Positions 9,690 to 58,096 of a stretch of DNA of 64,000 nt are shown here, piece after piece. Origin of the DNA: Octopus vulgaris (taxonomy: Eukaryota); NCBI GenBank assembly GCA_951406725.2, contig OX597828.1, positions 20,398,001 to 20,462,000 on the forward strand, given 5' to 3'. The number at the start of each line of letters is the position of its first letter. Within the stretch, counting starts at the first letter, position 1. The translations under genes were made by a program, and so were the position numbers. The notes beneath the pieces are model-generated. The model had not been told where the DNA came from and did no database searches. It saw only the letters and a program-made list of their open reading frames with translations.

Positions 9690-10504
9690 AAAATGCACTG
9701 AGAATAGTAAAAATATTTTAATTTTATTTAAATATTTAACCGGTTTCACAGTTTACACTAGCTTTCAAAAGCTGATATACAAAGACGTGAACTATGCCGC
9801 AAATGGCTTGCTAGTGTTTGAAGCTTGTCCTATTTTTATAGGGAGTACATAGCTCAAATTAGTATATGTTTTGGATAGGACTCGAATGATTGCGGAAAGT
9901 CAGATGACTTGTCTTAGGAAGTTTTGTAGGTTGCCGGCAACGTCATGTGTTAATATCGTGGCAATGTTTGGCGTAGTAAGTTAAGGCTGGCACGGTTGAA
10001 TGATGTCTAGTGACAGTACTTTACAATGTTTTTTGTCAAGTGTTGTAGAAAATATTCACGTGATTAAGTTTAGAGCCGTTTGTACGTTTCCCGCTTCGTC
10101 CGTGTGTTATAGCGTCACATGACAGTATATCTTGGGATCGAGTGAAGATGTTTAGTTACCGTTAAGACACTCTAAATTTAATCTGCCAAGTAGGACAGTG
10201 GATACGAGTCGTTTGTATGTAGTCCAATGGTTACAATTTAGGTTGTTACCTGTGTAGATTCCTCATGTTCAGTGGCAGAATGAATTTTGTGAATGAATAA
10301 TTATTTGTGTATGTACTCTGATGAAGTTTTTTGAGTCTCTGCTTGTATTTTTATATGAATGTATTTTCGTTGTTTATCCGTGCTTCATCTGTGGTATTTA
10401 TTAAACAAAGGTAGAGTGGGAACACCTGGAATTTGCGCTACTTAGTTTTTGTACATATGTCTGTGTCCGCTCAGTGGAATCTGTCTAGTACTGGGGTCTC
10501 GTAT
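9690..10504 (-). mobile_element. 5'-truncated Penelope-like element: GIY-YIG C-terminus plus 3' terminal region
   Basis: Minus-strand translation 'IRDPSTRQIPLSGH.DICTKTK*RKFQVFPLYLC..RINNENTFI*KYK' resembles PLE endonuclease ends. A degenerate hammerhead-like motif (TTGAAAG..TAGT GTAA ACTG..GAAAC CG GTT) lies at 9736-9770. Confidence 0.6.
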
Positions 10505-10735
10505 TAGGAATGAATGTCCCCAAATTTAGACCACAAGTAGTTTCTTGAGATATCGAGGACGTTTCTTACAATCCTTACTGTTCCCAATACAGCAGATTTC
10601 TGAATCAATGCAGCTCTTGTAGTTACATCAATCTCAATAAGTTAAGTATGTTGGTGACGATATCTAGGAGACCTGTAACAACTGAGATTACTTTTGTAGA
10701 AACGCCGCTAATGATTCGGAGTTCAAACTCCGAAT
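10505..10735 (-). mobile_element. R4/Dong-clade non-LTR retrotransposon 3' fragment next to a (TAA)n tract
   Basis: Minus-strand 'ELRII..TKVISVVTGLLDIV' and 'LIQKSAVLGTVRIVRNVLDI' match the R4/Dong RLE C-terminal signature (VIPVV.GALG...LQK..LLGTA.ILR.VL). It abuts (TTA)n at 10735. Confidence 0.7.
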
Positions 10736-11025
10736 TATTATTATTATTATTATCATTATTATTACTACTAACGCTACTATTATTATTATTATTATTATTA
10801 TTATTATTATTATTATTATTATTATTATTATTATTATTATTATTATTATGATTATTATTATTATTATCATTATTATTACTACTACCGCTACTATTATTAT
10901 TATTTTTGTCATCGTCATCATCATCATCATCGTCATCGTCGTTATTATTATCATCATTATCATCATCATCATCATCATCATCATCATCATCATTATCATC
11001 ATCAACATCATTATTATTATTATTG
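10735..11025. repeat. Compound (ATT)n/(ATC)n microsatellite
   Basis: Directly visible. Confidence 0.98.
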
Positions 11026-12049
11026 TTATGGTGTTTAAAATTTTGGGTCAAGGTCAGCAGTGTCAGGGGTCAGTCGATTACATCGAACCCAGGGCTCAAA
11101 TTGCTTCTTATTTTATTGACCGCGAAAGGATGAGAGGCAAAGTCGACTTCGGGGGAATTTCCACTGAGAATCTTGTGTGACGTGATAACCAGGAAACGGA
11201 TAGCAGCATTTTGTCCGTCTTTACGTTCTGCGTTGAAATTCTACTGAGGATGACTTTGCCTTTATTCTTTTCCGGGTGGGGTTCGATGTTATTCTACCCC
11301 CACCTCACACACACTCCTCAAATCTGCTGGCCTTGTGCCATAATAAAACAATCATTGGTTTCGATAATTTATACATTTAATTATGTAATTATTTAATTAC
11401 GTAGAAGGCGTAGTGATGGTCATCGTGGTAGTAATGGTATTATACACGGTGGTGTTGGTGGCTGGTGGTTGGGGATCATGGTGGTGGTAGTTGTAGCAGT
11501 GATGGCAGTTGTGATTGTGGTCATAGCAGACACGACGGTGGTGGTGGTGGTGGTGGTGGTGGTGCTACTGATTGCTGGAGCTGCTGCTGAGAGTGGTTGT
11601 ACATACAGTAGGTGTGCTGGTAGTGATGGTGGTGGTAATGGTGGTGGTGGTGGTTGGAATGGTGGGGGAAATTACAGGATGATAAATGTAATAGGTTTCG
11701 TGGTTGTAGTTAGTAGTCACGAAGACGACGGCGGTTATTACTATTATTATTATTATTATTATTATTATTATTATTATTATTATTATTATTATTATTATTA
11801 TTATTATTATTATTATTAATAGTAGTAATAGTAGTAGTAGTAGTAGTAATAGCAGTAGTAGTATCGTCATCATCATCCTCATTATCTTCATCATCATTAA
11901 TGTGCTTCTTCTTCTTCTTATTATTATTATTGCGTCACTAGGGGGTTAACAATTGGATGACAGATATGGCGGCATGAATGTCTAGGAAGAAATCTTGCCA
12001 ACTTTTTATATTGATCTTCTAAATGTAACACAGATCAATAACTGGAAAT

Positions 12050-13080
12050 ATAGAATATATACATATATATATTTTATATTATATAGACAATAAATATATG
12101 TATATATATATAAATATATATATATATATATATATATATATATATGTGTGTGTGTGTGTGTGTGTGTGTATATATATATACATATATTACATATACAATT
12201 GTATGTATATACATATATATGTGTATGTGTGCATATATGTATATATATGTGTATATACTTATATACATATATATATATACATATGCATATATATGTGTGT
12301 GTATATATATAAGTATTTTTACATGTATATATAAGCATATATATATATATATGATTATATGCATATATATGGGTATATATATATATATATATATATATAT
12401 GTATATATATATATATATATATATATATATATATATATATATATATATATATATATATATACCTATTGCATTACAAAATTAGACGACAAATTCGTAATAA
12501 GAATGGAAAGGAAGAAATAATGAGTTACAAGTGGATAAGCGTTATCTAATAATGATTCTGTATTTGTGTATTTGTGTGTGTATGTGTGAGGGGATTGTAA
12601 AAGAGTGCGAGAGAGAGATAGAGCCTGTGAGAGAGTGAAAGAGTAATGGAGAGAGAGTAGGAAAGAGAGGGATCACACACAGTGGAACCACACGCACACG
12701 CGCACACACAAATAGTTCAACGGACTTTTCAGTATGTATACTATTCTATATGTTTATACCAATATATATATATATATATATATATATATATATATGTATA
12801 TATATATATATATATATATATATATATATATATATATATATGTGTGTGTGTGTGTGTGTATATATATAGAGATATATGCATATAAACACATATAATATAT
12901 ATTTATATATGCATATATATATATATATATATATATATACATAAATAAGCTTATATATATGTATATATATATATATACACACATGTATACATATTGAGAA
13001 ATAAGGACAAAGCAACAGACAGACAAGCAGCCAGATATATATATATATATATATATATATATATATATATATATATATAA
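12050..13080. repeat. Compound (TA)n/(TG)n/(GA)n microsatellite field
   Basis: Directly visible. Confidence 0.95.
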
Positions 13081-13578
13081 TTCATGCATTCTTGAATTCA
13101 TACATTCTTGCATATTTATTTCAATATATATGTATGAAATTCTTGCAGTCAAATTATCGTTTATTATTATAGTATATATGTGTGTGTGTGTCTTTGTACG
13201 TGGTTTTCGGTGTATAAGTGTTGTTGCTTGTCTGTTCGTATCCATGTTCAACTTTTATTAACCAGATAATAGCTCGCAGCCATGCAGTGGTTTTGCATAC
13301 GTTCTTCTCTCTCTTCAAATGTCAGACCACATGGATACATTTGCACAGATGGGAGGCATTACCTGGCTTCGAATAGTAACAGCGAGGCTACTCGTATACT
13401 TTATTATTTTGATATTTTATTAGCCTCTGTTTTAAATCAAAGCTTAACGATCTATGATTCACTACGGATATATATATATATATATATATATATATATATA
13501 TATATATATATATATATATATATGGAAAAATGTCAAGGTAGAAAATGTTAAAAATTATTTTATCATAAAAAATGTTTT

Positions 13579-13611
13579 AGTACCGGTTTCGTCATTGTGA
13601 CTTTTTCAACT
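13579..13611 (-). ncRNA. Minimal type-I hammerhead-like motif, C3U/G8A core, in a Penelope-like terminal repeat (13523-13760)
   Basis: Minus strand: AG-UUGAAAAA-GUCA CAA UGAC-GAAAC CG GUA-CU. Palindromic stem III ACCGGT. Confidence 0.65.
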
Positions 13612-56520: not shown

Positions 56521-56760
56521 CCATGTTGATTCGCTAGCCTCTGCACGCATTTTTTTTTCTCTCCTTCTTTCTGTGTTTCTTCTCTGTGTATCTTTCTGTT
56601 GAAGAGCGTAGGCTCTAAACGTTAAAGACTTGTTTTATTTATATTTCCTGAGCGCCATACTAATACAATTGTTTGTTTGTATTCCACCTGCCTTCGTCTT
56701 TTGTTTATTTCCGTAAACCTGCCTTCGTCTTTTGTCTATTTTCATAAAGCTTCCCGTTAT
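56521..56760 (+). mobile_element. Penelope-like terminal repeat with an A6U hammerhead-like motif (56592-56627; G12 mutated)
   Basis: CUUU-CUGUUGAA-GAGC GUAG GCUC-UAAAC GUU-AAAG; flanked by (TA)n; homologue at 57970-58200. Confidence 0.6.
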
Positions 56761-56767
56761 ATGTATA

Positions 56768-57073
56768 TATCACGTGATCACGTGACCGACCAGTCCATCA
56801 GATGTAGTTACACATCGCTGGTCACAATGCGTTCGCATTGTTTTAGCCTTCGGATGACGCCACCCCGCTGGCTAAGCGAGCAGGCCAACAGAAAGAGTGG
56901 GAGAAAGAGTGGTGAAAGAGTACAGCAGGGATCACCACCCCCTGCCGGAGCCTCGTGGGGCTTTTAGGTGTTTTCGCTCAATAAACACTCACAACGCCCG
57001 GTCTGGGAATCGAAACCACGATCCTACGACCGCGAGTCCGCTGCCCTAACCACAAGGCCATTGCGCCTCCACA
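56768..57073 (-). mobile_element. SINE with the family D head/body and a different 3' tail
   Basis: 56890-57073 matches 4050-4236, but the tail (ending CACGTGATCACGTGA) is unrelated to the tail at 3924. Confidence 0.85.
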
Positions 57074-57090
57074 TATGTGTATATATATAT

Positions 57091-57510
57091 AGGCGCAGGA
57101 GTGGCTGTGTGGTAAGTAGCTTGCTAACCAACCACATGGTTCCGGGTTCAGTCCCACTACGTGGTATCTTGGGCAAGTGTCTTCTGCTATAGCCCCAGGC
57201 CGACCAATGCCTTGTGAGTTGATTTGGTAGACGGAAACTGAAAGAAGCCTGTCGTATATATGTACATATATGTATATGTATGTATGTGTATATGTTTGTG
57301 TGTCTGTGTTTGTACCCCTAGCATTGCTTGACAACCGATGCTGGTGTGTTTACGTCCCCGTCACTTAGCGGTTCGGCAAAAGAGACCGACAGAATAAGTA
57401 CTGGGCTTACAAAGAATAAGTCCCGGGGTCGAGTTGCTCGACTAAAGGCGGTGCTCCAGCATGGCCGCAGTCAAATGACTGAAACATGTAAAAGAGTAAA
57501 GAGTAAAGAG
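57091..57510 (+). mobile_element. SINE family A, full length
   Basis: Same blocks as 49222. Confidence 0.95.
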
Positions 57511-58060
57511 TATATATATATATATATATATATATATATATATATATATATATATATATATATATATATATATATATATATATATATATATATATATATA
57601 TATATATATTATATATATATATATATATATATATATATATATGGAATATGTGTAAATATGTATTTATGTATTGCTGTAAAATATATGATTGGTGGTTGGC
57701 TGTTGCTAATAATATGAAAAGATTTGTAAAGTAGTAAAACAGACATGAGTATAAATATAATTTTCAGAAAAATGCGGAGAAGTAAACAGCAAAGTGAAAG
57801 TTCACTGTAGTACTTCATAGATAGTTTGGTAGAAATCCTGAAAGGTCATCTTAAAAAAAAGAGTGTAGGATACACGGATAAACCTTTACGGTGTCTCTGG
57901 TGTTTGGTACTTAGTAATTTCAGAATTATATATATATATATATATATATATATATATATATATATATATACGAAGAATTCATAAAAAAAACAAAAGACAG
58001 AGACAGGTGCTGTAGACAACAAATAGATGTATTAGTATAACACTCGGGAAGTGAAAAAGT

Positions 58061-58096
58061 CTTTAACGTTTCGAGCCTACGCTCTTCCACAGAAAG
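58061..58096 (-). ncRNA. Minimal hammerhead-like motif, A6U core, in a terminal repeat (57970-58200)
   Basis: Minus strand: CUUU-CUGUGGAA-GAGC GUAG GCUC-GAAAC GUU-AAAG; all helices pair. Confidence 0.65.

Follow-up and report, generated by a model that had tools for sequence, protein, structure and literature searches.

We analysed a 64,000-nucleotide (nt) stretch of the Octopus vulgaris genome (hereafter the window; GCA_951406725.2, contig OX597828.1, positions 20,398,001 to 20,462,000), which is 35% GC and rich in microsatellites within an assembly of 2.8 Gb, and for which a preliminary description had listed 14 minimal hammerhead ribozymes on Penelope-like elements (PLEs). With high probability, these motifs belong to the 3' terminal repeats of several PLE families and are type I hammerheads, left as 5'-truncated, often inverted-pair insertions by (TA)n and likely cleaving only as pairs in full-length parent transcripts; that they are PLE ends is at least as probable as this reading as a whole. 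Descriptor matches compared with shuffles, covariation, and reverse transcriptase (RT) or GIY-YIG endonuclease sequence upstream all support the ribozyme identity and PLE origin proposed earlier.

Each motif type was searched against the genome, the best 13-30 copies per family were aligned, and one hidden Markov model (HMM) was built per family. All 14 listed coordinates proved to be hammerhead-like members of high-copy repeat families, each position being matched by the HMM of its own family, a result that is partly circular because window copies were part of the models. Reversed-sequence controls of the models gave no matches. The motifs sort into nine family models, in keeping with the at least six families first suggested: A (13579, 16871, 46538 and 46752), B (9736), C (17000), D (21852), D2 (37856), E (28245), F (38777), G (47124 and 47337) and H (56592 and 58061). 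At least 40 genome matches were found for each of eight families and at least 13 for E, as expected from the genome-wide radiation that had been proposed.

With a short-stem type I descriptor, the window gave no match under strict and one under relaxed settings, the relaxed form also matching once in 3 of 40 shuffles. Single copies therefore prove little, and the searches were made at family level across the genome. A descriptor allowing a helix II of up to 160 nt, designed after the families had been inspected, found two matches in the window as against none in each of 100 local dinucleotide shuffles. In 1.14 Mb of fetched loci, which are enriched for the families by design, it found 114 matches as against none in each of three shuffles, so that the comparison of hit rates with shuffled sequence favoured the motifs. 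Standard models do miss these cores, as had been anticipated: Rfam models gave no match to the window at the gathering score, and the best 150 of 209 by E-value were microRNA-type models on microsatellites. Half motifs (GAAAC-palindrome) numbered 20 in the window, compared with 1-12 in shuffles, and 74 in 400 kb, compared with 22-40; these counts were not used for copy number because several half motifs sit in unrelated repeats resembling short interspersed elements (SINEs).

The canonical core (CUGANGA or its U3-A8 form, GAAA and NUH) was the majority state in six families: A (28/30), B (20/30), C (18/30), D (28/30), D2 (20/25) and F (23/30). Families A and B have a core of the U3-A8 type, which is described as a compensatory catalytic-core pair; both U3-A8 and U10.1-U11.1 occur naturally (PMC3088659). 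The canonical core was rare in G (4/30, with A9C), H (0/25, with A6U) and E (4/13, with U4C common and a C/U mix at position 4), and these three are hammerhead-derived core variants. The palindromic stem III noted initially was seen in the majority sequences of all families except G.

A link to PLEs comes from longer copies, which continue through 0.5-1.4 kb of 3' untranslated region (UTR) into RT or GIY-YIG coding sequence. Upstream coding of this kind was found in eight of the nine families and in none of the 13 loci of family E. The short pieces can thus be read as 5'-truncated ends of coding PLEs, and the view of them as short non-autonomous derivatives is not supported for most families, whose longest copies run into RT or GIY-YIG coding. 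For family B, RT or GIY-YIG pieces lay upstream on the same strand in 23 of 30 loci, obtained with a query that favoured long copies. The GIY-YIG remnant reported at 9736 is present, and is located at 10252-10591, ~480 nt upstream of the motif instead of at it. Of 39 loci with a D endonuclease, 23 carried a D-type hammerhead on the same strand, 0.4-1.5 kb downstream. Locus L244 has the order (TA)n, inverted 3' end, CxCX5C linker, GIY-YIG domain (PF01541, E 3e-5), 3' UTR and family D hammerhead. A Hydra-type endonuclease was found upstream in 9 of 30 loci of family F, three being near-identical duplicates, and in 2 of 30 loci of family C, incompletely bridged by DNA similarity; D2 gave a link in 1 of 25 loci. 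Links in the other short-arm families were G 3/30, H 2/25 and A 1/30. Both RT and GIY-YIG were present upstream in B and D, in two loci of H and in one of A; only the endonuclease was found for F, C, G and D2. The closest named homologues of one linked RT were from Octopus species.

Linker motifs indicate which PLE clades are involved. The 39 D-linked loci carried the Hydra motifs CxCX5C (27), CxH (28), CxxC (16) and DKT (5); a loose pattern for the RWK motif matched 11, with RIRWI in L290. CxCX5C was also seen in F locus L335, and C locus L368 has CxC with altered spacing. The Neptune/Nematis linker CX2-5CxxC, which fails to separate these two clades, occurred in 10 of 30 B loci (as CX4CxxC) and in H loci L219 and L224; none was seen for families A or G. 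Upstream of the long-arm families C, D, D2 and F lies endonuclease of Hydra type, and upstream of three short-arm families RT or endonuclease of Neptune/Nematis type. A Naiad origin of the long-arm families was considered and dropped, as the endonuclease is C-terminal with a Hydra linker. Between RT and endonuclease, the Hydra open reading frame (ORF) of L280, L295, L312 and other D-linked loci contains long stretches of asparagine encoded by an (AAT)n microsatellite.

Families C, D, D2 and F have in common a 5-bp helix I, a long, folded helix II and a stem III formed by an 8-nt palindrome. In their majority sequences, the canonical CUGANGA core precedes GAAA by 96 (C), 59 (D), 58 (D2) and 78 nt (F). 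The term minimal is therefore wrong for the motifs at 17000, 21852, 37856 and 38777, where the spacing is 58-96 nt. A short parse of 21852 would use a neighbouring UUGA, but the family sequence at this place is UUUA, and the parse was therefore rejected. The isolated long domains II fold as irregular hairpins, with z of about -1.4 to -4.0 relative to mononucleotide shuffles, and the U.U pair below helix II matches published Hydra hammerheads.

Covariation was examined in 16 D-class sequences, consisting of 13 representatives at <90% identity from 121 full-length matches and three added sequences. The named structure left 87% of cells paired, and of its 30 pairs 11 showed changes on both sides. 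Double-sided changes affected 4 of 5 pairs in helix I and 3 of 4 at the helix II base. The covariation score, which is inflated by sequence relatedness, was reached by none of 500 shuffles, and slid controls scored far lower. Covariation, named earlier as a check, is thus present for the D class in helix I and the helix II base, but is weak in the mid-arm (2/12 pairs). Single-copy folding gave no hammerhead fold. Unconstrained two-copy folding produced double-hammerhead pairing for window copies D and F. We consider real dimer cleavage of these two slightly more probable than its absence.

Further arm lengths were found in the fetched loci, whose flanks hold unrelated hammerhead families with a domain II of 21, 31, 36, 44, 53-55 or 66 nt. 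Long-arm families with 78, 53-55, 66, 44 and 36 nt, encountered by chance in flanks and in arbitrary genome stretches, are represented at L380:1757-1861 (plus strand) and in L068, L112, L143, L209, L097 and L303. A D-class hammerhead at L308:2610-2673 (minus strand) has an arm shortened to 30 nt with core and stems intact, a natural arm-deletion control. A metagenome pattern scan for the D-type arm gave two matches without helix I, which were taken as chance.

The closest known relatives are the Hydra-clade PLEs of Craig et al. 2021 (PMC8557442, Files S1 and S2, including Hydra-1_Obim), with which the families share the C-terminal GIY-YIG, CxCX5C, DKT, CxxC and CxH motifs, (TA)n targets, inverted 5' copies, CUGAWGA, the U.U below helix II and a paired stem III. 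They differ in the arm: by our own count, the 26 rows for Hydra in File S2 give a domain II of 12-26 nt, compared with 58-96 nt in C, D, D2 and F, where it is two to four times longer than in these listed relatives. The 8-nt palindrome of stem III here has no unpaired base at its centre, unlike the Hydra hammerheads of PMC8557442, and the 3' UTRs here are ~1-1.4 kb. A long arm in a PLE has precedent in the spike-moss PLE-X1_sMoe, flagged as deviating in File S2, with a domain II of ~54 nt by our count; that element is from a plant, is endonuclease-less, targets ribosomal DNA and belongs to another clade. Minimal metazoan PLE hammerheads (Cervera and De la Pena 2014, PMC4209133) have in common with the present motifs a short or absent palindromic stem III, an extra base after A9 and the U3-A8 variant. 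In both cases a genome holds many divergent families, most copies are single and truncated, and pairs on opposite strands lie 100-700 bp from each other; the A6U and A9C norms of H and G and the long arms are not among the main-text features of that paper that we compared. The literature already describes hammerheads in PLEs, the U3-A8 pair, a palindromic stem III, targeting of (TA)n and inverted ends. We found no report of a long stem II in Hydra PLE hammerheads in literature searches that did not extend to subscription papers, Repbase entries and most supplements, and the long helix II of the Hydra-clade hammerheads appears to be a new variant. The published PLE core search, as described in PMC8557442, used a 7-17-nt spacer. 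Because size-limited descriptors and Rfam miss long arms, PLE hammerheads are undercounted. The significance of the long arms is modest, the general picture being already published; the arm-length series from 12 to 96 nt, together with A6U, A9C and U3-A8 families in one genome, offers a test panel for the role of PLE hammerheads.

The insertion pattern was then compared with that of known PLEs. A (TA)6 run lay within 150 nt of 9 of the 14 motifs, compared with 24% of background positions, and (TA)4 occurred within 300 nt 3' of the cut site in 187 of 243 family copies, compared with 71 of 243 at 700-1000 nt, a count in which the D query contained part of a TA run. The (TA)n association described before is therefore real. 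Each family meets (TA)n on its 3' side at a fixed distance, for example 38 nt (D), 54 (A), 95 (H), 125 (G), 139 (D2) and 150 (F). An inverted copy lay upstream in 55 of 230 loci, and the window has such pairs at 46.5 and 47 kb. Direct tandem hammerhead repeats were absent among the window motifs. Peaks of truncation points at -78 to -84 were rejected as a cleavage footprint, as they mark the D/D2 homology border.

From published PLE biology, a mechanism may be proposed in which the element protein would nick AT-rich DNA and copy its RNA from a site downstream of the hammerhead, each insertion retaining the hammerhead and losing a variable 5' part. In full-length transcripts, two copies are predicted to pair through the palindromic stem III into a double hammerhead, with the long helix II predicted to form an irregular hairpin that leaves the core free. 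An inverted pair would have no partner within one transcript and would form a long hairpin instead. Dimer cleavage has reportedly been described by Lunse et al. in RNA Biol. A palindromic stem III is taken to imply cleavage as dimers in PMC4209133 and PMC6765202, and PMC11167929 describes PLE reverse transcription as starting downstream of the hammerhead at fixed sites; this would account for constant 3' ends, variable 5' ends and the presence of a hammerhead in each stub. The PAc Poseidon element of Anolis (Frangieh et al. 2024, PMC11167929) likewise has a terminal hammerhead, an AT-rich target and fixed 3' ends downstream of the ribozyme; it belongs to a different clade and was tested in vitro.

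Several observations weigh against this picture. The coding links of A, C and D2 come from one or two loci each and E has none, and Pfam gave no match on six RT or endonuclease fragments. RNAalifold returned helix I and, in part, helix II, while the core was paired with stem III, and two-copy folding gave no hammerhead for window copies C and D2. Families H (A6U) and G (A9C) multiplied despite core changes expected to slow cleavage, a changed A6 being associated with low hammerhead activity (PMC3088659). Differences from the family majority were fewer at non-CpG core positions (44/2509) than in flanks (918/11235), which speaks for the picture, but this contrast is biased by best-match choice and non-homologous flanks. 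Direct tandem copies, needed for a cis dimer, occurred in only 4 of 230 loci, leaving the dispersed copies without a partner, and 5' truncation points did not pile up at the predicted cut site. Finally, hammerhead mutants of the only PLE tested in vitro left insertion unaffected, as described in PMC11167929.

Some of these observations would fit a hammerhead fold retained for binding by the element protein or for packaging, with self-cleavage secondary or absent. The very abundant families with A6U or A9C and the missing truncation footprint point in this direction, as does PAc cleavage, which is described as protein-assisted and dispensable in vitro (PMC11167929). Against it stand the fully canonical cores of the long-arm families (D 28/30, F 23/30, D2 20/25, C 18/30), the covariation of helix I and stem III, and U3-A8 as a compensatory catalytic-core pair (PMC3088659), and we regard it as possible, though the less likely case. 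A bolder proposal, which we put forward tentatively and think will rather fail than hold, is that Hydra-clade PLEs here repeatedly made helix II a selected, folded protein-binding or dimer-controlling module of 30-96 nt, forming an overlooked large-arm subclass of many thousands of copies, with the commonest family working with U at A6, a position that is normally fixed.

A further possibility is that the short copies are non-autonomous mini-elements, or retrozymes without long terminal repeats (non-LTR retrozymes), and propagate through small RNAs of their own. Most copies are indeed <500 nt and free of coding sequence, E has no coding link, and PLE termini have been proposed as a source of retrozymes (bioRxiv 10.64898/2026.07.22.740005). 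In one G locus, L070 (G000:C30:7600722-7603889), direct tandem copies with a canonical A9 core lie ~330 nt apart and may be retrozyme-like or dimer-competent. Non-LTR retrozymes also share the type I hammerhead, PLE kinship and, in one axolotl family, the U.U helix II base (PMC7229834; bioRxiv 10.64898/2026.07.22.740005). As described there, however, retrozymes are short tandem non-coding units. The families here seldom occur in tandem and connect to ORFs: the tandem layout that defines retrozymes was found in 4 of 230 loci, the copies have ragged 5' ends, and in eight of nine families the longest ones enter PLE ORFs. We therefore consider this explanation improbable. That the motifs are chance patterns of AT-rich repeats, as the few single window copies satisfying a descriptor, the empty Rfam search and the half motifs within SINE-like repeats might suggest, is refuted by the shuffle controls (114 matches to none) and coding links, and is further opposed by covariation and by the constant PLE 3'-end position, which is as published.

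To place the window in the genome, 40 arbitrary 10-kb stretches (400 kb) were sampled as background. The family-independent long-helix descriptor found 7 motifs there, two of them arms of one inverted pair, as against 2 in the 64-kb window, and one of the 7 belongs to a new family with a 78-nt arm. Models trained on the window gave 9 matches in the 400 kb, 8 of them family H; their 15 matches in the window are circular. The window, called dense before, thus has about twice the genome average and is not exceptional. A rough extrapolation from the sample would put the number of intact motifs in the genome at some tens of thousands.

In the window, D and F are intact, and C, 16871 and 13579 near-intact; 9736, 37856, 46538, 46752 and 56592 are broken, and 28245, 47124, 47337 and 58061 have family-variant cores. 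Most window copies are dead relics. The features are:

9630-10591, minus strand: 3' portion of a PLE of Neptune/Nematis type (family B) with endonuclease remnant, 3' UTR and hammerhead; relatives match at DNA level over 9630-10505 and by tblastn over 10252-10591
9735-9771, minus: hammerhead B, U3-A8 type, damaged, with A9G and weak helix I in this copy
10252-10591, minus: family B broken GIY-YIG endonuclease C-terminus (tblastn with genomic-relative fragments, best E 8e-22)
13578-13612, minus: hammerhead A, intact U3-A8 core, 2-bp helix I
16871-16906, minus: hammerhead A, U3-A8 core, C15.2 to U
17000-17124, minus: long-arm hammerhead C, canonical core 17119-17113, domain II 96 nt, stem III 8-nt palindrome, helix I 5 bp
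21802-22104, minus: Hydra-clade PLE family D 3' end, 5'-truncated, flanked by two (TA)n runs
21852-21939, minus: long-arm hammerhead D, intact, core 21934-21928, domain II 59 nt, helix I 5 bp, predicted cut after 21857
28245-28278, plus: minimal hammerhead E of an old family, U4C in this copy
37685-38033, minus: D2 insertion with short inverted partner, between (TA)n runs
37856-37938, minus: long-arm hammerhead D2, domain II 58 nt, damaged (G12A, helix II base broken)
38777-38882, minus: long-arm hammerhead F, intact, core 38877-38871, domain II 77 nt, helix I 5 bp, predicted cut after 38782
46538-46573, minus: hammerhead A, disrupted helix II, left arm of inverted pair
46752-46787, plus: hammerhead A without stem III and helix I, right arm of that pair
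47124-47163, minus: hammerhead G, A9C core, non-palindromic stem III, left arm of inverted pair
47337-47376, plus: hammerhead G, A9C core, right arm of that pair
51731-51803, plus: additional D2-like long-arm remnant without GAAA and stem III, absent from the preliminary description
56591-56628, plus: minimal hammerhead H, A6U core, G12U, damaged
58061-58096, minus: minimal hammerhead H, A6U core, the family norm

Some smaller features were also observed in the window. A probable decayed hammerhead at 27928-27993 (minus strand) has an 8-nt palindromic stem III, a domain II of ~40 nt and a weak model match (E 0.69), and no relative among the fetched loci. A broken Hydra-type endonuclease remnant lies at 15989-16270 (plus strand; tblastn E 3e-6), followed at ~16515-16585 by a stretch that looks tRNA-like by eye and in which ARAGORN found no tRNA. 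At 14738-15574 (minus strand) there is a 278-amino-acid open frame, which we take to resemble a Tc1/mariner transposase. The 3' tail of family F is directly duplicated at 37985-38249 and 38366-38634, both copies ending at (TA)n. At 22121-22202 and 8502-8653 there are palindromes with (TA)n or a short spacer in the middle, the first adjoining the 5' end of the family D stub.

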